Virus record (IMG/VR): IMGVR_UViG_3300008085_000025
Span: 46,839 to 110,838 of that record
Origin: a virus
Lineage: Duplodnaviria; Heunggongvirae; Uroviricota; Caudoviricetes
Direction: 5' to 3' (one strand)
DNA length: 64,000 nucleotides
The stretch's first letter is position 1. Each line of letters starts with the position of its first letter. The notes under the pieces are model-generated. The model was given only the letters and a program-made list of their open reading frames with translations. It did not search any database and was not told the DNA's origin. Made by a program: the position numbers and the translations under genes. Shown here piece after piece: positions 1,675-62,535 of this stretch.

Positions 1675-2352
1675 ATGGATACTATGGAAATTAAAAATCT
1701 AAAAACATCAAAAACTGAAAAACAGATTCAGGATGAGATTAATGCTGTTAAGGCCAAAAGGAAAACTCAACTATCGCAAACAGATTGGACACAGTTAGAT
1801 GATGTTAACCTACAAAATTCAGAAGAATTTAGGAATTGGAGAAAGGCCCTAAGAGAGTTAAACATTACTTCACTGAAAGATAAATCCTTGCTAGATGATT
1901 TGATTATTAACAAGCCAGTCCCACGAGTTTCAAAAGAAATTCCTACGCAAGAAGATAAAGATATCTCAGTGAAAGAATGTATCGTGGAAGACAGAGTCGA
2001 TGCTGAAAAATGTTTGACAAGTTTGTTGATAGAGGAAAAAAACTCTGAGTTAGTAGAGGCAGATGCTTCTAGTTATCCATTGTTCAGGCTTCTCCAAGAA
2101 GAATTGATCGAACATGATTTAGGACAAACACCACCAAAATTTCTTTCGAGATACATGGGGGCAGTTGGGTTAGACCCACAGGCAACGGAAGATCTTAAAG
2201 AGGTTGAAGAAATTTGCAAAAACTTCTTTGCAACGGTTAATGAGATTTTTTTCACGTTTGAATGTAAGATACGAAGCGTTTATACTATGTCCGAAGAGGA
2301 ATTGGATCAGGAGTTGAATAAACGTGGATATCGATATAGACCTATCAACTAA
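1675..2352 (+). CDS. hypothetical protein
   Basis: 225-aa ORF, coiled-coil-like, tightly spaced after previous gene. Confidence 0.5.
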   Translation: MDTMEIKNLKTSKTEKQIQDEINAVKAKRKTQLSQTDWTQLDDVNLQNSEEFRNWRKALRELNITSLKDKSLLDDLIINKPVPRVSKEIPTQEDKDISVKECIVEDRVDAEKCLTSLLIEEKNSELVEADASSYPLFRLLQEELIEHDLGQTPPKFLSRYMGAVGLDPQATEDLKEVEEICKNFFATVNEIFFTFECKIRSVYTMSEEELDQELNKRGYRYRPIN

Positions 2353-2899
2353 CGTAGATACAAAAAAGCTTTTTCCCAAAGCGATATCTGCTTCATCCAA
2401 CGAAAACGGAGAGCTTGTAAAGCACCTCGTCGGTCACTATTTCCAACACATTCCTGTTGATGAAGAAACCGGACTTTCTGCAATAACTTACAAAAGAGCA
2501 CTAGAGTATGGGTTTTTTAAAATCGACCTACTCCATTTGCGCTTATTGGATAATTTCAAATCAAAAGAACATTTGGAAAGTTATATGTTTCGAGAGCCAG
2601 ATTGGGGTTTGTTACAAAATGAAACTGTCGTGAAACGGCTTTTTCACCTGAGTAAATCGTATGAGCTATTGTGTCGCGTTAAACCTTCGTCTGTTTTGGA
2701 AGTAGCAGACTGTTTGGCGTTGATTCGTCCGGGAAAGGCTTTATTGATAAATAGTTATATCAAAGACAAAAAGGCAATTAGACAAGAGTTGTATAAAAAA
2801 GAAAAACCCAGTGATCTGAGAAAATCTCACGCAATTCCATATGCATATCTGGTAATAGCGCAACTCAATCTAATTGAAGACAACCTATATGAAGCTTAA
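2324..2899 (+). CDS. hypothetical protein
   Basis: 191-aa ORF overlapping neighbours by short ATG-overlaps. Confidence 0.45.
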   Translation: MDIDIDLSTNVDTKKLFPKAISASSNENGELVKHLVGHYFQHIPVDEETGLSAITYKRALEYGFFKIDLLHLRLLDNFKSKEHLESYMFREPDWGLLQNETVVKRLFHLSKSYELLCRVKPSSVLEVADCLALIRPGKALLINSYIKDKKAIRQELYKKEKPSDLRKSHAIPYAYLVIAQLNLIEDNLYEA

Positions 2900-3221
2900 T
2901 AATATCTTCGAAAACCAAATTTCACTATCAAATCGTCAAAAATACATATTGGCGACTATAAAATCGGCAGCTACGCCCCTGTTGGCATACGAGTCAATAG
3001 TGGACAGTGAGCCAGATGTGGTGGCCTCTAAATTGCTTGCTCGGTATGGGTTCATTGAGGTGTCGTCTAAGGAAGGAAAAGCTGTATTAACAACAAAGGG
3101 CGAAGAAGCGGTTGTTGAGTATGGCATAGCAGATGAAACCGGTCAACTTACCGACACTGGGACCGAGTTGGTTAATAACTACGGTAACGGAGAAGAAGAA
3201 TCAGGAGAGATAGTCAGTTAA
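2874..3221 (+). CDS. hypothetical protein
   Basis: 115-aa ORF. Confidence 0.45.
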   Translation: MKTTYMKLNNIFENQISLSNRQKYILATIKSAATPLLAYESIVDSEPDVVASKLLARYGFIEVSSKEGKAVLTTKGEEAVVEYGIADETGQLTDTGTELVNNYGNGEEESGEIVS

Positions 3222-3677
3222 TGTTTTGAAATCTGCTACGGAATCTTGAAAGTTTTCGGTATTTTTATGAATCTTGCGTTTTCTTTTTCTAATTTTCCTA
3301 GGGTTGCTAACATCAAAAAAATACACAGGCCCAATGATTCTGGAAACGTAATCTATTGAGTAGCTTTTTACGATTTTGGACGACTCATGGTCGAACCCCT
3401 CTTTACAAAATTCCACTGAAACCGGGTACTGGTCTCTGTTAGCAGCATACCATTGCCTAGCAATTTCAATTACTCTTTCTTCAGAAACTCCAAGAGGTCC
3501 ACACAAATCCAAGCAAAAAGCAGTGATATGCCTTTTCCCTACATTATCTATGATTGACAAATTTTTCTCATCATTGTATTTTATCAATGTTACGAATTCG
3601 TACCCCTTGTATGATAGGGGGTAGTCTTCTATAACTAAGGGAAATTCTGAATTGCTTTTTAGTCTCTTGATTTCCAT
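3201..3677 (-). CDS. hypothetical protein with basic C-terminus (lone minus-strand gene in a plus block)
   Basis: 158-aa ORF; C-terminal KIRKRKRKIHK. Confidence 0.45.
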   Translation of the reverse strand: MEIKRLKSNSEFPLVIEDYPLSYKGYEFVTLIKYNDEKNLSIIDNVGKRHITAFCLDLCGPLGVSEERVIEIARQWYAANRDQYPVSVEFCKEGFDHESSKIVKSYSIDYVSRIIGPVYFFDVSNPRKIRKRKRKIHKNTENFQDSVADFKTLTDYLS

Positions 3678-3772
3678 GTCTTTAAAAAAAATTATAGTTA
3701 TTGGAATATGATGGTATTTATACAGCGTTCTGGAATACCGAATAAATACAAAAGAATTATTATACAGGGTTA

Positions 3773-9257: not shown

Positions 9258-10358
9258 ATGAAACATTACAACTTTACAGTCTTTATTGGCAGATTCCAGC
9301 CGCCCCACAGAGGCCACCTCGAAACAATTCGCAAAGCTTTAGAAATCTCCGATAAGCTTATTCTTATCTTAGGAAGTTCGAACGCTTCGCAAAACATTAA
9401 AAACCCTTTCACGGACGCCCAGAGGGCACATATGATTCTTTCTGCTTTTCCTAACGATGCTGATCGCATCAGCATTCAGCATGTTCAAGACAGGTTTTAT
9501 CAAAACAAATATTGGATTACCGATGTCCAGAAAACCGTGTTCGATGCAATCTCTCGTAGTGGGTGGCATGACAAGCCTTCAGTTGCTTTGATGGGTCATA
9601 AAAAGGATGAAAGCTCGTGGTATCTTGATTCGTTCCCACAGTGGGATTTTATCGAAACCGACTCTATCACGATCAGCGAAGACGATGATGTGATCATGCA
9701 TTCAACAGATATTCGAGAACTTTATTACAAGGGAATGCTTGGGTACATTCGTCACCCACTTGGTTCCGAGACCACATATAAGTTTATGAAGGATTTCATG
9801 ACTACCCCGGAATATGAAAACTTGAAACGGGAATATGAGGACGGTCTGGACTATGAAAGGCTGTTTGCAGCATATCCAGAAAAGTGGGCCGTTAATTTTC
9901 TATGTGCAGATGCGGTTGTGATCCAGTCCGGTCATATTCTGCTTGTCAGACGGGCTGAGAGACCCGGTAAGGGGCTTTGGGCACTTCCGGGTGGCCACGT
10001 AAACTCTACCGAGACAACATTCGACGCGGCGATCAGAGAGCTTAAGGAAGAGACCTCTCTAAAGGTTCCAGAAAAGGTTCTTAGAGGGAGTATGGTCGAT
10101 TCAAAGTTCTTCGATCACCCTGATCGTTCTTTGCGTGGCAGGGTTCATACCAAGCGTGGTAGAACAGTTACAATGGCTTATTGCTTTTCATTGAACGACG
10201 GCCATAAACTGCCCAAGGTCGTTGGGGCCTCTGATGCTAGTGAAGTCAAGGGTGGTGCCGCATGGTGGTTCCCAATTAGTGAATTTAAGGTAATGAGGAA
10301 CCAAATGTTTGAAGACCATTATGACATTGCAAATTATTTCATTGATTCAATGGAGTGA
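9258..10358 (+). CDS. natV: Bifunctional nicotinamide-nucleotide adenylyltransferase / Nudix hydrolase (NatV-like)
   Basis: N-terminal GRFQPPHRGH (HxGH nucleotidyltransferase motif); C-terminal Nudix box GGHVNSTETTFDAAIRELKEETSL. Confidence 0.9.
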   Translation: MKHYNFTVFIGRFQPPHRGHLETIRKALEISDKLILILGSSNASQNIKNPFTDAQRAHMILSAFPNDADRISIQHVQDRFYQNKYWITDVQKTVFDAISRSGWHDKPSVALMGHKKDESSWYLDSFPQWDFIETDSITISEDDDVIMHSTDIRELYYKGMLGYIRHPLGSETTYKFMKDFMTTPEYENLKREYEDGLDYERLFAAYPEKWAVNFLCADAVVIQSGHILLVRRAERPGKGLWALPGGHVNSTETTFDAAIRELKEETSLKVPEKVLRGSMVDSKFFDHPDRSLRGRVHTKRGRTVTMAYCFSLNDGHKLPKVVGASDASEVKGGAAWWFPISEFKVMRNQMFEDHYDIANYFIDSME

Positions 10359-10434: not shown

Positions 10435-11160
10435 ATGAACTATAAAAATGTTTATGATTCAATTATTGATAAAGCTTTAGAAAGAAAACTGGATGTTAAC
10501 ACGTACTATGAAAAACATCATATAATTCCAAAGTGTTTGGGAGGTTTGGATGTAAATGAAAATTTAGTTTATTTAACAGCAAGAGAACACTATATATGTC
10601 ACCGCTTGTTGATAGATATTCATAAAAATAATGTAGAAAATTACACGAAAGTACTTCAAGCATTCATGCCCATGAGAGCTAAAAGTAAATATCATGAAGA
10701 GAGAGTAACCAACAGTAAAATGTATGAAAAGGTAAAAAATATATTATATGGGGATGGGGGATTACTGTTGGGTGAAAACCATCATTGGCATGGTAGAAAA
10801 CATACAAAAGAAACAAAAAAGAAAATGTCTAGGATAGCTATAGCCAAATGTCAAACATCCCATGAACGAAAAAGGTTAAAAACAATGGCCCTTAATAGAA
10901 CACCAGAACATAAGAAAAAAATACGAGATGCCCTCGTTGGAAGAAAAACGACAGAAGAAGCTAGAAAAAAAATGAGTGAATCTCATAAAGGAAAACAAAT
11001 GAACGAAAAAAATGGAAAGTCAAAAAAAGTGATTATAGATGGTAAAGAATATCCATCACTACGAGAAGCATCCAGACAACTCGGTATTAATGTTCACAAA
11101 TTATACTACAGGGTTGCGTTATCTTCATCCAAAAAATTTTCCAATTATTATTGGAAATAA
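10435..11160 (+). CDS. HNH homing endonuclease with NUMOD repeats
   Basis: HHIIPKCLGG...N (HNH); repeated GRKHTKETKKKMS / KGKQMNEKN NUMOD3-like motifs; C-terminal IDGKEYPSLREASRQLGI NUMOD1-like helix. Confidence 0.8.
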   Translation: MNYKNVYDSIIDKALERKLDVNTYYEKHHIIPKCLGGLDVNENLVYLTAREHYICHRLLIDIHKNNVENYTKVLQAFMPMRAKSKYHEERVTNSKMYEKVKNILYGDGGLLLGENHHWHGRKHTKETKKKMSRIAIAKCQTSHERKRLKTMALNRTPEHKKKIRDALVGRKTTEEARKKMSESHKGKQMNEKNGKSKKVIIDGKEYPSLREASRQLGINVHKLYYRVALSSSKKFSNYYWK

Positions 11161-11219
11161 AGATTTTATGATGGGCATAGAATCTTTTGCTTTATAAAAA
11201 CATGATTAAGGAGTTTAAC

Positions 11220-12617
11220 ATGAACAAATTAAGCAACAATCCTATATTGAATTGCGACTCGTACAAGACCAGCCACTTTGGGTTCATGGCACCCGGAACC
11301 ACCCGACAGTATTCTTATATTGAAGCTCGAAAGGGTGGAGAGTATGACACTTCAGTATTCTTCGGTCTTCAACATTTAATCAAAACCTCATTAATGAAGC
11401 CCGTTACGATGGAAATGGTTAATCAGGCCGAAGCCGTTATCACAGCACACGGTCTTCCATTCAACCGGAAAGGTTGGGAATACATAGTCAACGAATGTGA
11501 CGGGTTTTTGCCTTTAAGTATTCGCGCAGTTCCAGAAGGAATGCACGTACCAGAAGGAAATGTGATGGTTGTTGTCGAGAACACCGATGAGAATTGTGCG
11601 TGGGTCACTTCCTATGTGGAAACCTCTTTGCTTCGTGGCGTGTGGTACGGAACTACGGTCGCAACGCGCTCATATCGTTTCCGGGAATTGATTTCCAGTT
11701 ACTTGGAAGAAACTGGTGACCCCGACCTCATCGACTTCAAGTTTGTTGATTTTGGGGCACGTGGGGCATCTTCTAAGCAGTCGAGTGAGATTGCTGGTGC
11801 AGCACACTTGGTCAATTTCATGGCAACTGACAATATTGTTGGGATTCTCGCCTGTATGGAGTACTATAATTCTCCGGTTGTAACAGGGTTTTCAATTCCG
11901 GCGACGGAGCACACGGTTACTATTGCAGAAGGTCCGGGCAACGAGAAGAAGTTTTTTGAGCGCGCCATTGATGTATACGGTGGCGAGGGTAAGATGGTTT
12001 CTGTAGTTAGCGACACTTATTCGTTCGAAAACGCTCTTAATATTTGGGCAGAGCTTCGGGAAAAGATAGAAGAAAAGGGTGGTACTGTGGTGATTCGTCC
12101 AGACAGTGGAAATCCCACAGAAATGGTTATGCTTGCGTTGAACAAGCTTTCCGATTCTTACGGCTACACTATAAATGACAAGGGTTTTAAAGTTTTGAAT
12201 CCAGCGGTCAGAATCATTCAAGGTGATGGTGTGAATCTCTCCGAAGTCGAAAATATTTTGAAGACCATGAAGGTCTCAGGCTTCAGTGCAGATAATATTA
12301 CATTTGGGTGTGGTGGATATTTGCTTCAAGATTTGACGAGAGATACGTTACGTTTTGCTATGAAGGGCTCGTATGTGGAAGTTGATGGAGAAATTCGAGA
12401 AGTATGTAAAACTACTGAGACTGACCCCACTAAGGCTTCTAAGGCGGGTCGGGTTATATTAGTTAAGCGATCCGGTGTCCGACTACCCATCACCATTAGA
12501 GAGGAAGAGAAACTTCCGACAGACATAGAACTACTGGAAGAGGTATTCCTGAATGGAAAATTGGTACGGGATATGACGTTTGAAGAGGTCCGCACCAACG
12601 CCCGAACAAATTGGTAA
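11220..12617 (+). CDS. nadV: Nicotinamide phosphoribosyltransferase (NadV/NAMPT)
   Basis: NCDSYKTSHF signature, full-length about 465 aa; start set at ATG after AAGGAG RBS (ORF track begins at 11187). Confidence 0.9.
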   Translation: MNKLSNNPILNCDSYKTSHFGFMAPGTTRQYSYIEARKGGEYDTSVFFGLQHLIKTSLMKPVTMEMVNQAEAVITAHGLPFNRKGWEYIVNECDGFLPLSIRAVPEGMHVPEGNVMVVVENTDENCAWVTSYVETSLLRGVWYGTTVATRSYRFRELISSYLEETGDPDLIDFKFVDFGARGASSKQSSEIAGAAHLVNFMATDNIVGILACMEYYNSPVVTGFSIPATEHTVTIAEGPGNEKKFFERAIDVYGGEGKMVSVVSDTYSFENALNIWAELREKIEEKGGTVVIRPDSGNPTEMVMLALNKLSDSYGYTINDKGFKVLNPAVRIIQGDGVNLSEVENILKTMKVSGFSADNITFGCGGYLLQDLTRDTLRFAMKGSYVEVDGEIREVCKTTETDPTKASKAGRVILVKRSGVRLPITIREEEKLPTDIELLEEVFLNGKLVRDMTFEEVRTNARTNW

Positions 12618-18023: not shown

Positions 18024-18328
18024 TGAAAACTAAAAGCGTTTATAACATCCTAGAGGATTTTGCTAAAAAACTAGGCGACGAAGATTTAACTGTATCGTTT
18101 GCATTATGTAGGGGAGAGTGGTACGTGTCTGTGTCTTGTCACAGCTCGATGTATATGAAGTTTGATCATGATGGAGAACAACGATCAGCTATTATCCATC
18201 ATAGTGAATCAGAAACTAACATAAAAAAGATACTCGGAGAATTGGTTGATAAATACCTCGAACATATGAAAGATACGAGGAAATCAAATGATATTGAGAG
18301 AATTGAAGTATCCGAAGAGACCAGTTAG
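18024..18328 (+). CDS. hypothetical protein (possible TTG start coupled to the frd stop)
   Basis: ORF 17954..18328 overlaps the frd end; GGAGA RBS precedes TTG at 18024. Confidence 0.4.
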
Positions 18329-18825
18329 TTCTGATTCAGAATTAGGTGTATCTGTGGGGAAATACGTAGGGGTAAATTTCACCCCAGAAACCGTTGAACA
18401 AATCAAAAAAATAATCGACGGGGACAAAATACCGAACCCAACAAACCCAGAAGATTTTCATTCTACGATAGCCCATAGTGTAACAGACATTAAAGGTTAT
18501 CAGCCTGATGAAGAACTCGAAGAACCAAAAGAAGCAAAAAATCAAGGGATTTAAAATTTTTAATACGAAAGACGGTGGTCGCTGCTTGGTAGCGGCCCTC
18601 GATTCAGACTACTTGAGAGATAAACACCAGACCACATTAGATCATGGCGCTACTTACGATTTTCCAGAGTACATCCCTCATGTAACTTTGTCCTATAATG
18701 TGGGTGACGACTTGTCCGAAGAAAATCTAGATAAGTTGACGAACAAATATGGCGGAACTGTACTAAAAATTTCGAAAGAATATATGCAAGATCTTGATCC
18801 AAATTGGGTAGAAAAGCGCTCATAA
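18288..18825 (+). CDS. 2H phosphoesterase (LigT/Acb1-like) split by a +1 frame change at an A6 run
   Basis: First H-x-T motif (FHSTIAH) in frame of 18288..18554; second (PHVTLSY) in frame of 18508..18825; deleting one A in GCAAAAAATC (about 18533-18538) gives a continuous protein of about 175 aa. Confidence 0.55.
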
Positions 18826-18881
18826 TCGTTGACTCTAACGTAGATATGTTGTATAATATCGTATCTACTTGAGGGTTAACA

Positions 18882-20762
18882 ATGACTATCGATATCGAGA
18901 AAACGATTCAAGATTTACAAAAATTCGACGAGGCTTACTATAAGGGTTCACCCCTGATCCCCGATGACCAATACGACGCACTTCGTAGGAGAGCCGAGGA
19001 AATTTCTCCAGAACATGAGTATTTCAAAAAAGCCCCCCACGTTAAAGAAACATCGTTGGAGAAAGTACATCTCCCATACTCTATGGGAAGTTTAAATCAG
19101 GTCTATGAGGGTGAAGCGTTAAAGTGGGCTGAAAAGTATGATTGTATTCAAAATGATGTTGTAGTCACAGAAAAGCTCGATGGGGCCAGCATTCTTTTGG
19201 TGTACGAAAGCAACGGGAGGGGCAAGGCCGAACTGTCCAAAGCGTTCACGCGGGGTGATGGTGTTCTGGGCCATGACGTTACTCGTCATATTGTAGCTAT
19301 CGTCGATATTCCCAAAACCGTCGGTTGTGACTATCTGGCGGTTCGGGCGGAAATAATAATGCGCCGTTCGGTATTTGACGCCAAATATAAAAGAAAGTAC
19401 AAGAATCCTAGAAACTTAGTTGCAGGTTTTCTTAATAGAAACGAAACTAATCTGGAAATGGTGCAAGATGTTGATCTTGTCGCCTACGAGATTATCGATG
19501 TTTCCGGAGTTAGTAACGTATTTACGAAAGAAGAAACCGTAAACCATTTGAAGCAGATGGATTTCACTGTGGCTCGTCACGAGAAAATGAAAGGATGTGA
19601 CCTGACCGACGAAAAACTTGCAAACACGTTGGCCGAATTCAAGAGAACCGGCGTGTATGAACTAGACGGAGTAGTGGTAACAGTCAATGACTATTCTAAT
19701 TTCAAGGAAACCTCTGATTCAGATTCATTGAACCCGGAACACTCTGTGAAGTTTAAGGTACAAACACTGTTTGAAGAAGTAGAGGTAAAAGAAGTTATCT
19801 GGAAACTTTCTAAGTCTAACTTTTTTAAACCTAGAATCAAGTTTGAAGAAGTTGAGTTAGACGGGGCCACTATAACCTACGCCACGGGGCACAACGCAAG
19901 ATTTATTCGTGACAATGGGATTGGTAGTGGTGCCAAAATTAAAATCACTCGCGCCGGTAGTGTTATCCCGTATGTGATGGGGGTAACGAGACCCGTTCAC
20001 CCCGACATGCCACCCAAAGGCACGTGGAGTTGGGATGAAAACGGGGTTGAAGCTGTCTCTAAGGAAGAAATCTCTTCCCAGCGTACTTTGATGGAGACCG
20101 TTCACTTTTTTAAGACTCTCGGTGTTGATAACGTACAAGAAACTTCTATTGAAAAATTAATAGAACATCAAGGATGGAGTGAAAAAATCTTCGACGATTT
20201 GGTAGTATCAATTATAGAGTTATGGGATGAAGAGTGGAGACAAGCGTTGGGAGAAAATGGGAAAAAGGCGTTTCTGAGTTTACATACTATTCTCTCTAGT
20301 GTAAAACCTGAAGTGGTAATGGGATCACTCCCTTATTTTGGAAGAGGGTTCGGGGTTCGAAAAGCGAAGAAGGTTTTGGGACAAATGACCCTAGAAGAGT
20401 TCAAAAACGCTACATTCGAAGATATCGAGAAACTAGAAGGGTTTAATTCTACATGTGAAAGCATCTATGATGGATTAAGCCGCTTCAATATATTTTTGGA
20501 TAGAACCAAGGACTACATAACTTTCACAAAAAAGTCGGTGACCGAGCAAAGTATGGGTGGTCAAACTATAGTGATGACAGGATTTAGGGATAACGAATTG
20601 AAAGAAAAAATCGAGGAGCGCGGTGGAAAGGTCACGACTTCTGTTTCTAAGAATACAACTATGGTTCTTACCAAAAGCGTTAAGTCTTCTAGCTCTAAAG
20701 TGAAGAAAGCTAAAGAATTGGGTATTCCTGTGGTCGATGTTGCTGATTTTGATGTTATCTGA
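18882..20762 (+). CDS. ligA: NAD+-dependent DNA ligase (LigA-type)
   Basis: KLDGAS adenylation motif (KxDG), LigA N-terminal Ia-like region, C-terminal BRCT-like GQTIVMTGF... Confidence 0.9.
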   Translation: MTIDIEKTIQDLQKFDEAYYKGSPLIPDDQYDALRRRAEEISPEHEYFKKAPHVKETSLEKVHLPYSMGSLNQVYEGEALKWAEKYDCIQNDVVVTEKLDGASILLVYESNGRGKAELSKAFTRGDGVLGHDVTRHIVAIVDIPKTVGCDYLAVRAEIIMRRSVFDAKYKRKYKNPRNLVAGFLNRNETNLEMVQDVDLVAYEIIDVSGVSNVFTKEETVNHLKQMDFTVARHEKMKGCDLTDEKLANTLAEFKRTGVYELDGVVVTVNDYSNFKETSDSDSLNPEHSVKFKVQTLFEEVEVKEVIWKLSKSNFFKPRIKFEEVELDGATITYATGHNARFIRDNGIGSGAKIKITRAGSVIPYVMGVTRPVHPDMPPKGTWSWDENGVEAVSKEEISSQRTLMETVHFFKTLGVDNVQETSIEKLIEHQGWSEKIFDDLVVSIIELWDEEWRQALGENGKKAFLSLHTILSSVKPEVVMGSLPYFGRGFGVRKAKKVLGQMTLEEFKNATFEDIEKLEGFNSTCESIYDGLSRFNIFLDRTKDYITFTKKSVTEQSMGGQTIVMTGFRDNELKEKIEERGGKVTTSVSKNTTMVLTKSVKSSSSKVKKAKELGIPVVDVADFDVI

Positions 20763-20814
20763 TAGCGCGTGTTCTAAATAGAACAAACGATTCTTTTAAT
20801 AAAGGAAACAATGC

Positions 20815-21519
20815 ATGTCAAATAAAGCAATTGACGAAAGATTCGAGGATGGTTCTTCTTTTAGGATTGATCCACCAAAAATTAAGCATTACGTACAAAG
20901 CTTGCAATTAAATGTTCACCACTTTTATCTGTCTGGAGAGATAGAGGATGATATTAACAAGTATTCAGACCTACTCAATGTGTTAAAAACCGCTAATGAA
21001 GAGGATACTATAGTAATTTACATCAACAGTGAAGGCGGTTCTCTTAGAATGGCAATACAGATTGTGAACTCTATGGTCGCATCTAGAGCCAAAGTGATTA
21101 CTTCTTTAGACGGAGATGCCCATTCTGCAGCGACTTTGATTTTTTTATCTGGGGAAGAGTATATCATCAATCCGAATTGTTCTTTTATGATACACAACTA
21201 TTCTGGCGGTTTTGCAATCGGAAAGGGGCATGAAATTAGAACGAGAGTAGAGCATGTAAACGGCTATGTGGAAAAAATAATGAGAAAGTTTTATGAGAAA
21301 ATTCTTACAGAAGAAGAGATCGACCATGTAGTTGATGGTCGAGATATCTGGATGGATTCCGACCAGCTTATTGCTCGTTTAGAAGCTGGAGAGAAGAATT
21401 CTTTACTTGAGACAGAAGACATTACTCCCAAAACCCCCTTGGATGGTAAATTGGTATCCAGTGGAAGAAAAAAAACTACTAAGAAAAAGACTAAAATAAA
21501 ATTGTCCGAAGATACTTGA
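20815..21519 (+). CDS. ClpP-family (S14) serine peptidase
   Basis: IVIYINSEGGSLRMAIQIVNSM / GDAHSAATLIFLSG (Ser) / MIHNY (His) align with ClpP catalytic blocks. Confidence 0.8.
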   Translation: MSNKAIDERFEDGSSFRIDPPKIKHYVQSLQLNVHHFYLSGEIEDDINKYSDLLNVLKTANEEDTIVIYINSEGGSLRMAIQIVNSMVASRAKVITSLDGDAHSAATLIFLSGEEYIINPNCSFMIHNYSGGFAIGKGHEIRTRVEHVNGYVEKIMRKFYEKILTEEEIDHVVDGRDIWMDSDQLIARLEAGEKNSLLETEDITPKTPLDGKLVSSGRKKTTKKKTKIKLSEDT

Positions 21520-21528
21520 CGGGTTGGA

Positions 21529-21536
21529 TATAAATA
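21529..21536 (+). promoter_or_regulatory. T4-type late promoter motif TATAAATA upstream of ssrA
   Basis: Exact TATAAATA about 10 nt before the tmRNA acceptor piece. Confidence 0.45.
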
Positions 21537-21544
21537 GGTATAAT

Positions 21545-21935
21545 AATAAGCATTCGTTGAGACGAGACTGAAAGCGAACGACACGCGGGTTCGACTCCCG
21601 CCGTCTCCAAAAGCGTCTACAAGTGCCAACAGAGGAAGGATAGGGCATCCTCCCGGCGTAGCAAACAAAAAAGCCTTAGACGAGTTGGGTAATGCGTCAG
21701 AAACCCGGTAAATCCGGGAAATGGTGGACGCTTTTGGAGGGGGCGAAACTGGAAATCGACCGGGCGTTATTAGGAATCGAGGAGAATCGTCAACAAAGAC
21801 GCAAAAATGATAGTAAAATAAATGCAGCAAATGACGCTGACTTCGACAGCAACGCTAACGGCTTCGCCCTAGCAGCTTGATCGAATGCGGGTTAGAGCAA
21901 TATCCGTATAACCAAAGCTCAGAAGGGGACAAGCT
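21545..21935 (+). ncRNA. ssrA: tmRNA (ssrA), apparently circularly permuted two-piece form
   Basis: Upstream T-arm GCGGGTTCGACTCCCGC then an acceptor 3' strand CCGUCUCCA(AAA), where a CCA trinucleotide is present only if the acceptor strand is taken as GCCGUCU/discriminator C or CGCCGUC/U, and is followed by AAA under the CGUCUCC/A reading; about 110-nt intervening segment closed by perfect 11-nt inverted repeat CCAAAAGCGTC/GACGCTTTTGG; then GGGGGCGAAACUGGAAAUCGACCGGG (cf. E. coli GGGGCUGAUUCUGGAUUCGACGGG); tag ORF GCA AAT GAC...GCA GCT TGA = ANDADFDSNANGFALAA; terminator soon after. Confidence 0.65.
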
Positions 21936-21957
21936 AACTTGTCCCCTTCTCTATTTT
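21925..21957 (+). terminator. rho-independent terminator of ssrA
   Basis: GGGGACAAG-ctaa-CTTGTCCCC then TTCTCTATTTT. Confidence 0.75.
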
Positions 21958-22009
21958 AATTGTTGCCAGTAGTATTGCAAATACCGTCTCATATCAATAT
22001 AATGATCAA

Positions 22010-23125
22010 ATGGCCAAGACTCTACGGGAAATAAAACAGCAAATTGCTGAAAGACGAAAAAAGCTTGAAGACGAAAACGTTTTAAGCAATATCTCAATTC
22101 GAGATATTGTTGACGCTGTGGTGTCATATGAAGAAATTGATGTGGTGGGATGGAACAAAGTATACTGCCAAGTATGCGGAGACGGTTCCCGAACACAAGG
22201 ACCTAGAGGGGGTTGGAAATTCGACGGAGAAGACTGCTATTACAATTGTTTCAATTGTGGCATAGGGGGAGCATTTACCCCAGAAAACGACATCTTTATG
22301 TCTAAAAACATGAAGGTTATTTTCGAGGCTTTCGGGATACAAAGTAGAGAATATGGAAAGATTCTTTACAGACTTAGAAATTCAAAAGGTAAACATTTTG
22401 TACCCAAGATAAAGTCTAAAGAGGAACAGAGTCGTGAAAAAGCGTTGCAATCTATGACGCAATCCACCATGGAATTTCCAGATTATCTGGTTCCTTTGGT
22501 CAGCGTCCTCGAAGCCCCAATAGGGAAAAAGTGTACGTCACTGTTAAAGGAAAAAGGTATGTCGCCCGATGATTATCCGTTTTTTGTCAGCAGTGGAAAA
22601 ACCGAATCCAAACATCAACAAGATAAAATAAACGCTAAGATTATGGTCAATCGACTGGTAATTCCCATTTATTATAAAGAAAAACTTTTATTGCTTCAAG
22701 GAAGAGACTTGACAGGAAAAAGTAAACGAAAATATATTAATATCGGAGAGATATCAACAACTTTATATGGATTGGACCGCCTGTCTCCTTCGCACGAACA
22801 AATTTATGTGGTTGAAGGGTTCTTTGACGCGTATCATTTAAATGGTGTTGCAACGATAACAAACAAGCTCCATACCACACAACGTGATGTTCTTAATTCC
22901 ATAGATAAGCCCAAGATAATTGTTCCTGACCGAAATGGGGACAGTAACTCTCTGTTGGAGCATGGGGTGGAGCTAGGCTGGGGCTTTAGCGCACCCAAAG
23001 CCCTTGATAATTGCAAAGATGTAACTGAAGCGATAGTTAAATACGGAAAGCTGTTCACTTGTTATCACATACAAAATTCTAAAAAAATTGGAGACGAGGC
23101 AAAGTTTTTTAAAAATTTTGTTTGA
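22010..23125 (+). CDS. 61: DNA primase (T4 gp61-like; Zn-ribbon plus TOPRIM)
   Basis: CQVCGDGSRT...GWKFDGEDCYYNCFNCG and LVIPIYYKEKLLLLQGRDL and YVVEGFFDAYHL parallel the T4 gp61 blocks. Confidence 0.8.
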   Translation: MAKTLREIKQQIAERRKKLEDENVLSNISIRDIVDAVVSYEEIDVVGWNKVYCQVCGDGSRTQGPRGGWKFDGEDCYYNCFNCGIGGAFTPENDIFMSKNMKVIFEAFGIQSREYGKILYRLRNSKGKHFVPKIKSKEEQSREKALQSMTQSTMEFPDYLVPLVSVLEAPIGKKCTSLLKEKGMSPDDYPFFVSSGKTESKHQQDKINAKIMVNRLVIPIYYKEKLLLLQGRDLTGKSKRKYINIGEISTTLYGLDRLSPSHEQIYVVEGFFDAYHLNGVATITNKLHTTQRDVLNSIDKPKIIVPDRNGDSNSLLEHGVELGWGFSAPKALDNCKDVTEAIVKYGKLFTCYHIQNSKKIGDEAKFFKNFV

Positions 23126-23160
23126 GAATACATAAATATGCTTTAGATGGTTTTTAATTA

Positions 23161-23355
23161 GTGGAGTCCTCATTGAGACAAAAATACCAAAAGACTCTTG
23201 ATGAAATAGGAACTAACGCGAGTATGCGATCCAAAGAGACGGACATTCGTGCTCTCGTCGATCTTGCAGAACAAATGAGACGAGAGGGAAATTACAGCGA
23301 AGCTGCAATGTTGGAAATCATCAAAAAGTTTGATGAAAGAATCGCAAAAGTTTAA
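23161..23355 (+). CDS. small hypothetical protein
   Basis: 64-aa ORF. Confidence 0.3.
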   Translation: MESSLRQKYQKTLDEIGTNASMRSKETDIRALVDLAEQMRREGNYSEAAMLEIIKKFDERIAKV

Positions 23356-23561
23356 TTATCGTCTAACCAGAAAAATACAGACCCTTCGATCTAGAGGGAT
23401 TTCTGACGTTTTCGCCGAATACAGAACAACCGACGACCCCCTTACGTTTTCAAGAAATTACAACATTAGTTTGAATGACGATGGAACTGTATTTGACAAA
23501 GACTCCAAAATGAGGTATGATACCCTTTCAGATTGGATTCAATTTTCCAAAAGGAGTTAAA

Positions 23562-29966: not shown

Positions 29967-30698
29967 ACATCAATGAAATTTTTTAAATCATACGGACCAA
30001 ACCCCGAAGGAAGAGACTTCGTAGTATCCGATCTACACGGATGCTATGAAGATTTCAAAAATCTTCTTTATGACAACAGATTCGATCCTAATGTAGACAG
30101 AGTTTTTTCTGTAGGAGACCTTGTGGACCGTGGACCAGATAGCCTTTCTTGTCTAAAACTGATGGAAGAAGAATGGTTTTTTCCCGTTTTAGGAAATCAC
30201 GAAATAATGTGGCTTGCTGCTCATAAGTATTGGATGGAAGATTACGACCCTGCTACTGATGATGTCGTTCAGTTGAAAACATATTTTCATATTTTTATGC
30301 AAAACGGTGGGTCCATTATTGACAATGGGGGAGCATACCTTAGATTTAAAAAAATAATAGAAAAGCTTCCGTCTATTATTGAGGTAAACCATAAAAATGG
30401 TAAGAAATTTGGGGTGCTACATGCAGAGCTTCCAATCAAATTCACCGATTGGTCGTTATTGTATAAAATGACAGAAGACCAGATGAGCAAAGATTTAGCG
30501 GACAATTTGTATTGGGGCAGAAGCCGTTTTACTTCCAGAAGCTATTTACAAGCCGATCTTAAAAAAATTCTAAATGTTGACCGGATTTACGTCGGACACA
30601 CTATAGTTGAAAAAGTTACCAATATTGGAAACGTTCGTTACATAGACACTGGTAGTTTTTTATCAACCGGTAAAATCACTGTGGAGTTAATGGAATGA
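29946..30698 (+). CDS. Ser/Thr protein phosphatase (calcineurin-like metallophosphoesterase, lambda PPase-like)
   Basis: DLHG, GDLVDRGP and GNHE motifs in canonical order; start may be 29973. Confidence 0.85.
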   Translation: MNSSSYNTSMKFFKSYGPNPEGRDFVVSDLHGCYEDFKNLLYDNRFDPNVDRVFSVGDLVDRGPDSLSCLKLMEEEWFFPVLGNHEIMWLAAHKYWMEDYDPATDDVVQLKTYFHIFMQNGGSIIDNGGAYLRFKKIIEKLPSIIEVNHKNGKKFGVLHAELPIKFTDWSLLYKMTEDQMSKDLADNLYWGRSRFTSRSYLQADLKKILNVDRIYVGHTIVEKVTNIGNVRYIDTGSFLSTGKITVELME

Positions 30699-31126
30699 TG
30701 CAATTTAGGGGAAAATATGATTTTTTAAGTAATTTTTATATGCATCCTATAACATTTCAGGGTGTAACCTATCTTACCTCAGAGCATGCTTACCAAGCTT
30801 TGAAGTTTACTGACCCATCTATTCGGCAAAAGATAATTAATTCAAATACTCCGGGAAAGGCCAAACGCCTATCTCGAAAGTACAGTAAATACGTCCGCCC
30901 GGATTGGATTGACATCAGTCTACAAATAATGTATGATCTTAACAAGATCAAGTTTTCTGATACAGAACTTGCCGAAAGACTGTCACAAATAGACGAGCCA
31001 ATCGTGGAAGGAAACAGTTGGGGAGATACTTTTTGGGGGGTTGATATAGAAAGCGGGAAGGGGGAAAATCATCTTGGTCGAATTTTGGAAAGGATCAAGA
31101 AAGAAAACGAAGTATTTACTGACTAA
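30695..31126 (+). CDS. NADAR / YbiA (DUF1768) domain protein
   Basis: FRGKYDFLSNFY...EHAYQALKF signature. Confidence 0.8.
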   Translation: MMQFRGKYDFLSNFYMHPITFQGVTYLTSEHAYQALKFTDPSIRQKIINSNTPGKAKRLSRKYSKYVRPDWIDISLQIMYDLNKIKFSDTELAERLSQIDEPIVEGNSWGDTFWGVDIESGKGENHLGRILERIKKENEVFTD

Positions 31127-37173: not shown

Positions 37174-37259
37174 ACTCTGTTAACATCTTTAGGACAAGAG
37201 GAACATCCTTTTTCGTTACACGGGCAAGCTAAATATAATAAACAAGAAAGTAACTAACA

Positions 37260-37526
37260 ATGGCTACTCACACCTATGATTTTGTTCCCGGAGATACAGC
37301 ATATGCAGTCATTAACAATGATTGTGTGAAAAAGGTATTGGTCCTTCAATATACGTTTGAAACTTATCTAACATCTTCCATCCCCGCTTCTATTGGGGAA
37401 TATGTAGTTAAATACGAAAATGAAGAAAAAACCGATTTTGTGTTACCAGAAAATTTGTTTGCCACTGCTAGTGAAGCGTTGGCTCAAATTGATTTGAATT
37501 TGATGGGAGACTCGTCTCCAGTTTAA
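37260..37526 (+). CDS. hypothetical protein
   Basis: 88-aa ORF with upstream RBS. Confidence 0.4.
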   Translation: MATHTYDFVPGDTAYAVINNDCVKKVLVLQYTFETYLTSSIPASIGEYVVKYENEEKTDFVLPENLFATASEALAQIDLNLMGDSSPV

Positions 37527-37717
37527 CCCAATAAAACTTCTCGGTTGTCTTCCATGACAGGAACTATAATACATTTACTTTTTTGGTCCTCTGTAAGATT
37601 ACTTACAAATACGTCTGCCATGAGTTTAGAAGATTCAACGGTCAGAACTCTGCCGTTTTCTCCGATAACCTTGTAGCGTAAGTCGTTTGTCGAATCAGTT
37701 AGTGTTTTCTTTGTCAT
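37523..37717 (-). CDS. small hypothetical protein
   Basis: 64-aa ORF. Confidence 0.35.
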   Translation of the reverse strand: MTKKTLTDSTNDLRYKVIGENGRVLTVESSKLMADVFVSNLTEDQKSKCIIVPVMEDNREVLLG

Positions 37718-38237: not shown

Positions 38238-38659
38238 TTTCTAAACATGTCCATATTACCGCCGCATTTCCGGGGGATATGCGAATTCCAAGTCATGAAC
38301 AAGCAATTCCCAAAATCCCTCATTTCAACAGAGTAACCAATGATCAAAGTTTCATCAATAACATCCATACAGATGGTTCCTAGAGGTGGAACGGGGTACA
38401 GTACAGTTGGTAGAATGGTGTTTCCGGGAGTTAGATCGGCACAATAGGCGCTGATATATTCAGAGTAATAAAGTTCCCCATTGTACCAAACATCTTCTCC
38501 GACAGTAAATCCGGTTGTATACCATATAATTTCACCGCTGGTGTTGGTAATATTGATTGATACTGCGTGTTGCGAATTCTCCCAATAACCATTTAATTCA
38601 ACTAAATTTTCTGCGGAAGATGCGATTACATTTCCGGCTAAGATAATTTCTTTGATCAT
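38234..38659 (-). CDS. hypothetical protein
   Basis: 141-aa ORF, start overlaps next gene stop. Confidence 0.45.
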   Translation of the reverse strand: MIKEIILAGNVIASSAENLVELNGYWENSQHAVSINITNTSGEIIWYTTGFTVGEDVWYNGELYYSEYISAYCADLTPGNTILPTVLYPVPPLGTICMDVIDETLIIGYSVEMRDFGNCLFMTWNSHIPRKCGGNMDMFRK

Positions 38660-39207
38660 TTTTTGTCCCCAATCTTGTTATAGTATTCGTCGAATTTTTT
38701 TCTGAGAATTATAAATCCGATTGTTACTAGTAACAATACTAGTATTGTTCCCAATGTTATCCATGGAAAGTGTAGAATTGCCCCTATCAAGCCCATCGTT
38801 GATGCCCAAAAAGACATTAACGCAACAAAAGGCATGGGTCTTGGAAAAAAATATCCCGGAGGTAGAACCGGTTCTCTATAATATTCTAACAAATGATCTG
38901 GAACAAAATTTTTCGCAAAGAATTTTCTGATTGTGCTACGGGATCTAGTTAGATAATCCGAGATAAGCTCTATTATATTATCAATTGCGGCCAAAGAAAA
39001 AGATACTATTGCGCCCGAAAAGACTAAGATAATAGGTGTAGTAGGAAAACTTTGCCCTATGGTGGGACCAAACAACCACGGGATAATAGCAAAAATGTGT
39101 ATCATCGGTACCATAAAAAGTTGCATTAGATAATAATCTAAATCTGCTTCTGCTAGTCCAAATTGGGCAGTTAAAAATTTGAAAAATTTCATTCTAAATT
39201 TCCTCAT
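38656..39207 (-). CDS. multi-pass membrane protein
   Basis: Several hydrophobic helices. Confidence 0.5.
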   Translation of the reverse strand: MRKFRMKFFKFLTAQFGLAEADLDYYLMQLFMVPMIHIFAIIPWLFGPTIGQSFPTTPIILVFSGAIVSFSLAAIDNIIELISDYLTRSRSTIRKFFAKNFVPDHLLEYYREPVLPPGYFFPRPMPFVALMSFWASTMGLIGAILHFPWITLGTILVLLLVTIGFIILRKKFDEYYNKIGDKK

Positions 39208-46720: not shown

Positions 46721-46869
46721 TACCCCGGATACCTTTTCTTTAACTCCAATACCAATAAACTCAGTTGATTTTTTATATCATTCAAAAAAACAAATTCTCA
46801 ATTATTTCAGTATTACCATGAATGGCACCATTGGGCCTAATTATAGAAAAAGAAAATGACCCAGTCGTG

Positions 46870-56232: not shown

Positions 56233-56317
56233 GCCGAGGTCGCATAGTCTGGTCGATTGCACTGGCTTTGTAACCCAGTATTCCACACCGTAGGTTCAAA
56301 TCCTACCCTCGGCACCA
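56233..56317 (+). tRNA. tRNA, anticodon probably UGU (Thr), atypical 11-nt unpaired variable region
   Basis: Acceptor GCCGAGG/CCTCGGC, T-arm GTAGG-TTCAAAT-CCTAC, A-CCA encoded; anticodon arm CTGGC-TTTGTAA-CCCAG has one C-C mismatch; 85 nt. Confidence 0.55.
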
Positions 56318-56324
56318 AAACAAT

Positions 56325-56398
56325 GCCTCGTTAGTTCAATGGAAGAACCACGCTCTTACACAGCGATGACGGCAGTTCGATTCTGTCACGAGGTACCA
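56325..56398 (+). tRNA. tRNA-Val (UAC), tentative
   Basis: Acceptor GCCTCGT/ACGAGGT (G1-U72), D-arm GTTC/GAAC, anticodon loop CTTACAC, T-arm GGCAG-TTCGATT-CTGTC, ACCA encoded; 74 nt. Confidence 0.6.
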
Positions 56399-59764: not shown

Positions 59765-59840
59765 GCCCTTTTGGTGTAACTGGATAGCACAAGGGATTTC
59801 TACTCCCTTAGTATGGGTTCGAGTCCTGTAGAGGGTGCCA
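59765..59840 (+). tRNA. tRNA-Arg (UCU)
   Basis: Acceptor GCCCTTT/AGAGGGT, D-arm GTGT/GCAC, anticodon arm AGGGA-TTTCTAC-TCCCT, T-arm ATGGG-TTCGAGT-CCTGT, discriminator G, CCA encoded; 76 nt. Confidence 0.8.
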
Positions 59841-62458: not shown

Positions 62459-62535
62459 GGGACCGTAGCTCAATCGGTTAGAGCGTCCGACTCATAATCG
62501 GCAGGTTGGAGGTTCGAGTCCTCCCGGTCCCACCA
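62459..62535 (+). tRNA. tRNA with CAU anticodon (Met elongator-like or Ile2/lysidine)
   Basis: GGGACCG/CGGTCCC acceptor, GCTC-AATCGGTTA-GAGC D-arm, CTCATAA anticodon loop, GGAGG-TTCGAGT-CCTCC T-arm, ACCA; close to E. coli tRNA-Met(elong). Confidence 0.8.

Follow-up and report, generated by a model that had tools for sequence, protein, structure and literature searches.

Transfer-messenger RNAs (tmRNAs), two-piece forms included, have been described from the Methylophilales phage Melnitz and from pelagimyophages (PMC9004378), and tmRNAs are also known from huge phages (PMC7162821) and phage G (PMC12484599). ClpP-like genes have been reported from jumbo phages (PMC7824862, PMC6102473). Here we analyzed a stretch of 64,000 nucleotides from a virus of the class Caudoviricetes (positions 46,839 to 110,838 of IMG/VR record IMGVR_UViG_3300008085_000025; the whole stretch is called the window below), in which the stop codon of a ClpP-like protease gene is followed by a tmRNA at a distance of 32 nt. 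In bacteria, ssrA has smpB rather than clpP as its linked gene, and a C-terminal LAA is recognized by ClpX. The literature search, within the library covered, found no paper linking a phage tmRNA with a protease neighbor, and the paper on the cultured phage XacN1, which holds both genes, mentions neither tmRNA nor ClpP. The conserved, co-diverging pairing of the two genes and the non-canonical character of the protease appear to be undescribed so far.

The identity of both genes and their co-inheritance are hardly in doubt. ARAGORN called a single tmRNA in the window, at 21519-21971 on the plus strand, as a permuted RNA with the tag AANDADFDSNANGFALAA*. The Rfam model tmRNA_permuted (RF04321; gathering threshold 47 bits) matched positions 21552-21880 end to end (model 1-213) with 60.9 bits and an E-value of 2.4e-9. 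The tmRNA is of the two-piece, circularly permuted type, in which the acceptor piece lies 5′ of the coding piece and the tag frame. The elements of the pair are:

20815-21519, plus strand: ClpP-like S14 serine protease of 234 amino acids (Pfam PF00574; phrog_1827; AlphaFold2 model; Foldseek)
21552-21609, plus strand: acceptor piece of the tmRNA, with the 3′ strand of helix 2, the T-arm, the 3′ acceptor strand and the discriminator A
21610-21738, plus strand: intervening segment of the permuted precursor, 129 nt, an insert in the Rfam alignment that is predicted to be excised
21739-21915, plus strand: coding piece of the tmRNA, with the 5′ acceptor strand, D-loop analogue, helix 2, resume region, tag frame and 3′ structure
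21824-21880, plus strand: tag reading frame, GCA GCA AAU GAC ... CUA GCA GCU UGA, translated as AANDADFDSNANGFALAA*

The signals of an intact RNA can be read from the sequence. The T-arm GCGGG/TTCGACT/CCCGC (21585-21601) is followed by the acceptor 3′ strand CGUCUCC (21602-21608) and the discriminator A at 21609, and the acceptor 5′ strand GGGGGCG occupies 21739-21745. All seven positions of the resulting stem are paired, including G3·U70, the alanine identity element. The tag frame opens with an alanine resume codon and closes with a stop codon behind a hydrophobic-Ala-Ala end. In the minimum-free-energy fold, the ends of the intervening segment prolong the acceptor stem, which gives a long helix in the precursor. 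The 416-nt tmRNA region folds with -138.6 kcal/mol compared to -112.3 ± 5.6 kcal/mol for shuffled sequences (z = -4.68; 0 of 100 shuffles), and the tmRNA sequence is the same in three independent assemblies. An attP fragment of ssrA left at an integration site was ruled out, as the RNA is complete, compensatory changes are present and the genomes are of the lytic jumbo type. The 62-amino-acid 'protein' placed by metagenome gene callers at 21692-21880 (10878-11066 of locus L017) is spurious and represents the tag frame extended upstream. Comparison with cultured phages at the DNA level gave no match for positions 20000-23000, and the tmRNA itself gave T-arm fragments only.

The 3′ CCA is not encoded in the window tmRNA, where AAAG comes directly after the discriminator A. 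Each of the four tRNAs in the window (56233-56317, 56325-56398, 59765-59840 and 62459-62535) encodes it. The CCA-less acceptor piece is one of only few among 31 related tmRNAs, nearly all of which encode ACCA. Since CCA is absent from the tmRNA gene, it must be added after transcription, and a candidate for completing the acceptor piece is encoded by the phage itself:

34463-35650, minus strand: phage tRNA nucleotidyltransferase (class II CCA-adding enzyme; phrog_2244, 6e-65; Pfam PolyA_pol, 1e-33, and PolyA_pol_RNAbd)

The protease gene is real as well. Its product matches Pfam CLP_protease (PF00574) with 75.3 bits (cut-off 20.2; 7e-21), and its top PHROG is the non-structural phrog_1827 (4e-54, residues 25-196). 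The catalytic triad S104/H127/D177 is unchanged throughout 32 homologs, as is the GKG at 136-138. The AlphaFold2 model has an overall predicted local distance difference test score (pLDDT) of 82.5, with values above 90 in the core (residues 34-201). Foldseek superimposed this core, handle helix included, on solved ClpP structures with template-modeling scores of 0.70-0.78 and a root-mean-square deviation of about 2.2 Å over approximately 160 residues. Residues 1-33 are without secondary structure (pLDDT 46-62) and predicted to be disordered. The curated ClpP cut-offs were missed by a wide margin (TIGR00493: 40 vs 308.6 bits; NF001368: 54.8 vs 249 bits). Judged from its sequence and the preserved triad, the product is a non-canonical protease of the ClpP fold that is not structural and has its catalytic residues intact. 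The sequence-only reading from which this work started had placed a ClpP-family gene with conserved Ser, His and Asp blocks directly before a tmRNA whose tag ends in ALAA, and all of this holds; the two-piece type and the unencoded CCA were absent from it.

Two further features of the protease family were observed. The tail of the window protein (217-234) is rich in lysine, and nearly all phage members carry an acidic linker followed by KKxxKKK (alignment columns ~280-312); binding of nucleic acid or the ribosome may be one possible role of this tail. Chromosomal homologs with 33-47% identity and the same triad and GKG occur almost exclusively in Betaproteobacteria, among them Chitinibacter, Vogesella, Pseudogulbenkiania, Rhodocyclus, Propionivibrio and Accumulibacter. 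They represent an uncharacterized stand-alone ClpP paralog (loci L154-L196; e.g. L160 2105-3049 and L172 2405-3121). A prophage origin was ruled out because their neighbors are housekeeping genes, not prophage genes.

The evidence that the two genes belong together comes from their relatives. Loci were gathered by ClpP similarity alone from identical and near-identical proteins, IMG/VR (two sub-alignments), JGI metagenomes and GTDB genomes, and tmRNAs were detected with Rfam, ARAGORN and nhmmer profiles built from phage tmRNAs. A neighbor-joining tree was calculated from 89 ClpP clusters (95% identity), of which the 44 with at least 34.6% identity to the window protein form the in-group. Within 700 bp of the ClpP gene, 26 of the 44 in-group clusters carry a permuted tmRNA on the same strand; the 45 out-group clusters carry none. 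Among metagenome loci the adjacent permuted tmRNA was present in 15 of 25, and among loci from bacterial genomes in 0 of 43. The observed adjacency of tmRNA and ClpP-like gene is real and far beyond chance, and the question whether related genomes keep the pair, raised by the sequence-only reading, is answered positively for a large clade.

Two genomic contexts were distinguished. In group 1, which comprises jumbo contigs reaching 379 kb, the genes are arranged as (DHFR/Acb1/ligase)-tmRNA-ClpP-primase. The swapped order ligase-ClpP-tmRNA-primase was found only in the subclade of the window (the window, L007, L009, L020 and the metagenome loci L129-L134). In group 2, tmRNA and ClpP lie within a tRNA array with 10-13 tRNAs per 5.5 kb, ligase and primase are not nearby, and no terminator-like hairpin separates the two genes. 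Given the two contexts and the swapped order, the ClpP-like gene is the only constant neighbor of the tmRNA. Group-2 loci L035, L039, L047 and L049-L052 (~2000-3000 in each) encode short tags of bacterial length, such as ANDTQFALAA, ANDQVYALAA and ANESVYALAA; L104 and L106 carry ClpP-like genes in tRNA arrays that contain no tmRNA.

Pairwise distances of ClpP and tmRNA co-vary (Mantel r = 0.65; 0 of 5000 permutations), also within group 1 (r = 0.46; 1 of 5000), and nearest neighbors in the two sets of distances often coincide. This argues for co-inheritance rather than repeated capture; independent acquisition of tmRNAs beside ClpP is disfavored by the co-divergence, for which phage sequences only were compared.

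The tmRNAs of the relatives show features expected of functional RNAs. Complete 7/7 acceptor pairing was found in 28 of 31 unique phage tmRNAs (27 distinct sequences among the 28; L004/L005 and L015/L016 being two entries for the same pair), with G1-C72, G2-C71 and G3·U70 invariant in all 28. Many of them show compensatory changes at positions 4-7 of the acceptor stem, and nearly all encode ACCA. Their tags begin with A(N/S)(D/E) and mostly end with LAA, a few with IAA, QAA or LVA. Most relatives, with members of both groups among them, exceed the gathering threshold of the betaproteobacterial model beta_tmRNA (RF01850, 84 bits) with 87-148 bits; L015 fits the alphaproteobacterial model better. 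ARAGORN overlooked the tmRNAs of L007-L009 and L011-L016, which were recovered by the Rfam models and a home-made nhmmer profile. Taken together, the beta-type tmRNAs and the betaproteobacterial protease homologs point to Betaproteobacteria as hosts or gene donors, and the clade carrying the pair consists of uncultivated jumbo phages related to XacN1 and Rak2, probably phages of Betaproteobacteria.

Inspection of the flanking sequences revealed the following signals and genes around the pair:

18829-18857, plus strand: sigma-70-like promoter TTGACT-17-TATAAT (11/12), preceding the ligase and ClpP genes
18882-20762, plus strand: NAD-dependent DNA ligase (Pfam DNA_ligase_aden, OB and BRCT; phrog_3869, 1e-134; synteny with XacN1, Xoo-sp13 and RAS14)
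21516-21544, plus strand: sigma-70-like promoter TTGACG-17-TATAAT (11/12), directly 5′ of the tmRNA and overlapping the ClpP stop codon
21529-21536, plus strand: TATAAATA, a T4-late-type promoter motif inside the spacer of the preceding promoter
21921-21957, plus strand: intrinsic terminator with a 13-bp stem (hairpin 21921-21950), seven GC pairs and a T-run
21975-22003, plus strand: weaker promoter TTGCAA-17-TATAAT upstream of the primase gene
22010-23125, plus strand: DNA primase (phrog_47, 5e-29)

The same promoter layout precedes the tmRNA in the relatives L007 and L133. The motif TATAAATA, which we take to be the T4 late-promoter consensus, occurs 12 times in the window compared to 4.27 expected copies (0 of 100 shuffles), at 3715, 9188, 10400, 12647, 14578, 17214, 21529, 26277, 32618, 37745, 56213 and 59864. 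Almost every copy precedes, by 15-70 nt, a protein or RNA gene of the same orientation, the tRNA-Thr/Val pair included, and (T)ATAAATA(G) recurs 5′ of most group-1 tmRNAs. A late sigma factor is encoded by XacN1. The motif probably represents the phage's own promoter class. The hairpin behind the tmRNA is the only strong terminator in 18400-23400, and there is none between ClpP and tmRNA in the window, so the ligase-ClpP transcript should read into the tmRNA. By its sequence, the terminator is expected to end both the tmRNA transcript and any such read-through.

As the best explanation of these results we propose an old, co-inherited pair of a tmRNA and a ClpP-fold protease that may act in the same pathway, a reading to which we assign a probability of roughly 0.45. 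The tmRNA would be transcribed from the sigma-70-like promoter with its embedded T4-late-type motif and, in addition, by read-through from ligase and ClpP. Its precursor would be cut into two pieces, CCA would be added to the acceptor piece by the CCA-adding enzyme of phage or host, and host alanyl-tRNA synthetase (AlaRS) would charge the RNA. Together with host SmpB it would then free ribosomes that have stalled on broken mRNAs during infection, leaving peptides tagged with ...ALAA. The protease, expressed along with the replication genes, would degrade tagged or unfolded products of translation, with recycling of their amino acids, either alone or with some partner other than host ClpX. A place for the protease in the tmRNA pathway is our tentative best guess, at a little short of even odds, and functional coupling of the two is plausible. 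SmpB, ClpX, ClpA and ClpS were not found in the 64-kb window, and SmpB gave no tblastn match in XacN1-like isolates (with an E. coli query 100% identical to database copies). By established tmRNA biology, the tmRNA must therefore use SmpB, AlaRS, EF-Tu and RNase P of the host.

That SmpB and ClpX were not found in the window is among the points that weigh against this explanation, and several others concern the conservation of the pair. A terminator-like hairpin parts tmRNA from ClpP in 8 of the 11 group-1 'upstream' loci, and 18 of the 44 in-group clusters lack a tmRNA in the surrounding 2.5 kb. Members of the protease family occur without a phage tmRNA in T5-like phages, ICP1, an autographivirus (CRP-143) and betaproteobacterial chromosomes. 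Sampling via the RNA pointed in the same direction. A search of viral contigs with a T-arm/acceptor pattern yielded 61 permuted tmRNAs, 27 of them flanked on either side by 1.2 kb or more, and only one of these 27 has an in-family ClpP-like neighbor. In XacN1, the tmRNA belongs to the terminal repeat, which is rich in tRNAs, and some 49 kb separate it from the ClpP gene. The pairing is therefore not obligatory, and it is a trait of a clade, not of phage tmRNAs generally. Moreover, ClpP-primase adjacency is even more conserved than tmRNA-ClpP adjacency, so that a conserved order by itself may reflect no more than modular inheritance.

The tmRNA of XacN1 (genome accession AP018399.1) is an unannotated permuted RNA of the beta type (RF04321, 123 bits; RF01850, 108 bits) with the tag ANANTFDYALAA, and a GOLLD RNA (RF02032, 227 bits) was detected directly beside it. 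The host of this phage is Xanthomonas (Xanthomonas citri); gammaproteobacteria normally carry a one-piece tmRNA. The two RNAs are located as follows:

1702-2122 and 3071-3484 of locus L199, corresponding to ~37201-37621 and 38570-38983 of AP018399.1: XacN1 tmRNA and GOLLD stretches

The remaining points concern the interaction with ClpX. No axial loop or helix A can be aligned, and hhalign paired only residues 36-142 of the phage protein with residues 28-136 of E. coli ClpP (the E. coli sequence aligned as expected). The N-terminal stretch comprises 35 residues and is long enough for a divergent gate element. In E. coli, the pocket for the IGF/L-loop of ClpX and ClpA is formed by L48, F49, Y60, Y62, F82, I90, M92, F112 and L114. 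At L48, F49, Y62 and F112 the phage protein has the same or a similar residue; of the phage residues, L54, V56, V67, Y69 and I117 are classed as kept or conservative. Half of the pocket residues are altered, by the exchanges F82 to A89 (A/S in the family), I90 to S97 (S/C/T), M92 to D99 (D/E) and L114 to N119, and an acidic residue occupies the M92 position in 29 of 32 aligned sequences. With neither gate nor docking pocket conserved, the phage protein would not act as a drop-in partner of host ClpX. The sequence-only reading had called it a protease matching the tagging RNA; this part found no support, and classical docking of host ClpX is not supported by the sequence comparison. For the family as a whole, activity independent of the classical ClpX interface is probable.

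A functional link has a serious rival in simple inherited synteny. According to this explanation the genes are neighbors by descent only: the tmRNA would serve translation, as the phage tRNAs do, by ribosome rescue, and the protease would have an unrelated early role, for example degradation of host proteins during takeover or, within the ligase-ClpP-primase block, turnover of replication proteins. Most of the points listed above speak for it, namely the terminators at most group-1 loci, the unconserved ClpX-docking features, the rarity of a ClpP-like neighbor beside other phage permuted tmRNAs and the family members that lack a phage tmRNA. XacN1 keeps both genes though apart, and the adjacency of ClpP and primase is universal in group 1, XacN1 included, without an obvious functional link. 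Furthermore, jumbo-phage ClpP has been read as a host-directed peptidase by Iyer et al. 2021 (PMC7824862). On the other hand, the pair outlasts at least two rearrangements of its surroundings (the order swap, and the tRNA array versus the replication block), both genes are always co-oriented, and they co-diverge. The window tmRNA is located with ClpP and not with the tRNAs, which lie 35-41 kb away. We consider descent alone entirely conceivable, though short of probable.

A bolder version of the shared pathway is a self-contained viral branch of trans-translation, in which a gate-less protease destroys unfolded products without an AAA+ unfoldase. The tmRNA would tag peptides from ribosomes stalled on cleaved mRNAs, such as those arising after host shut-off or from the RNases of abortive infection, and the Lys-rich tail may tether the protease to the ribosome or to the tmRNA. 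Such a branch, if true, would represent an anti-defense and amino-acid-recycling device. That the phage brings its own trans-translation and degradation module had also been proposed in the sequence-only reading, and of this module the tmRNA and protease genes are present, whereas genes for the partner factors named above were not found in the window. We regard a self-contained branch as unlikely.

It is still less likely that the tmRNA acts against the host, as a decoy for SmpB, AlaRS or ribosomes, or that the window copy is even decaying. The window tmRNA lacks an encoded CCA though the tRNAs of the window have it, and it is the most divergent of the family (60.9 bits with RF04321, ~33 bits with the beta model, CCA unencoded). 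With 33.3 bits it stays below the RF01850 threshold of 84 bits, and RF01850 is still its best fit. Like the other points noted, this divergence counts against the shared pathway. Moreover, a tag-less phage tmRNA (DS6A) has been reported to inhibit host tmRNA (PMC11915505). A decoy is difficult to reconcile with the intact tag frame and its canonical degron, the perfect acceptor stem with G3·U70 and the strong fold of the window RNA. The same tmRNA sequence was recovered in three assemblies of an abundant phage, whose ClpP protein occurs in 84 index blocks (256,834 bp for the longest contig with the identical protein), and the phage encodes a CCA-adding enzyme. In the relatives, the encoded CCA and the compensatory changes indicate selection on a chargeable RNA.

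That the ClpP-like protein is a prohead (capsid-maturation) protease with a coincidental tmRNA neighbor, the other possibility raised in the sequence-only reading, is very improbable and was rejected, because the family cut-off was missed, the context is non-structural and XacN1 has a separate S77 protease. Its top NCBIfam match is NF045542, 'head maturation protease, ClpP-related', but with 82.6 bits below the cut-off of 120; the matches to several head-maturation PHROGs do not go beyond 1e-27, compared to 4e-54 for phrog_1827; and one small open reading frame of the window has a weak Phage_scaffold match (6e-5), against 64 kb in which no head genes were found. The order ligase-ClpP-primase is shared by XacN1 (44% identity), Xoo-sp13 and RAS14/CM1, and every group-1 relative has the gene between ligase and primase. 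In XacN1, a Peptidase_S77 of the T4 gp21 type (71.5 bits) adjoins the T4-type portal gene (Portal_T4), some 89 kb away from the ClpP gene. Early or metabolic genes also surround the homologs of a T5-like phage and an autographivirus, and housekeeping genes those of bacteria. For the pair-bearing IMG/VR contigs, no contig names were shared with S77 matches in a pattern search that reached only close relatives of the XacN1 protein.

The genes of the window are of early or metabolic type. They include rIIA/rIIB, DHFR, Acb1, ligase, primase, NAMPT, NMNAT/Nudix, HSP20, PhoH, MazG, a 5′-nucleotidase, the CCA-adding enzyme and tRNAs. The anti-CBASS homolog Acb1 is split into two overlapping open reading frames (18288-18554 and 18508-18825; 88 and 105 amino acids) in three independent assemblies, and forms a single frame of 154-180 amino acids in the relatives L007, L009 and L012. 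The split could reflect a frameshift, a pseudogene or programmed frameshifting. An NMNAT/Nudix fusion, NAMPT and a NADAR-domain gene were located at 9258-10358, 11187-12617 and 30695-31126, and a Macro-domain match was found among the small open reading frames. Together they constitute an NAD-salvage/ADP-ribose set; such sets are described for phage counter-defense against NAD depletion. In the relative L011 (1740-4496), the DNA ligase gene is interrupted by an oppositely oriented DUF723 endonuclease-like gene, and in L009 (221-2230) the PhoH gene contains a LAGLIDADG domain, which may be an intein. The conserved block thus appears to be invaded by mobile elements.

Phages are known to carry tmRNAs as well as ClpP-like genes, and the pair provides a testable hypothesis for the function of both, that of virus-run ribosome rescue coupled to proteolysis. 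As the cultured phage XacN1 holds both genes, genetics is possible.

Comparison with known systems places the locus as follows. ClpP barrels without a functional N-terminal gate, either gate-less or opened by acyldepsipeptides (ADEP), degrade unfolded and nascent polypeptides without an ATPase. The N-terminus of the window protease is similarly disordered and non-conserved, and by this analogy the phage protease, known here from its sequence and a monomer model only, could behave like a gate-less ClpP. In the bacterial ssrA-ClpXP system the tag also carries a C-terminal LAA, and here a Ser-His-Asp peptidase of the ClpP fold adjoins the tagging RNA. Unlike its bacterial counterpart, the phage peptidase has no recognizable axial gate or helix A, half of its IGF pocket is changed, and ClpX and SmpB were not found nearby. 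Its closest relatives belong to the early 'ATP-dependent protease' family phrog_1827 (XacN1 ORF177, Xoo-sp13 gp177, T5-like gp030, ICP1 ClpP). The window protein matches this family with 4e-54 and shares the order ligase-ClpP-primase with the closest member, that of XacN1 (44% identity); in contrast to the window, cultured members have no adjacent tmRNA.

The RNA resembles the betaproteobacterial two-piece tmRNA (RF01850 and RF04321, with Caulobacter as the functional reference) in its permuted order, the T-arm, the 7-bp stem with G3·U70, the resume codon GCA after UAAAU and a tag that starts with AND and ends with LAA. It differs in being encoded by a lytic jumbo phage, in its 33 bits with RF01850, the 129-nt intervening segment, the 18-codon tag and the unencoded CCA. 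With the tmRNAs of Melnitz, pelagimyophages, huge phages, phage G and actinobacteriophages it shares a virus-borne ssrA, which is often two-piece in aquatic phages, and the roles that have been proposed, namely rescue of ribosomes or selective tagging during infection. In contrast to these phage tmRNAs, that of the window forms a conserved pair together with a ClpP-like gene.

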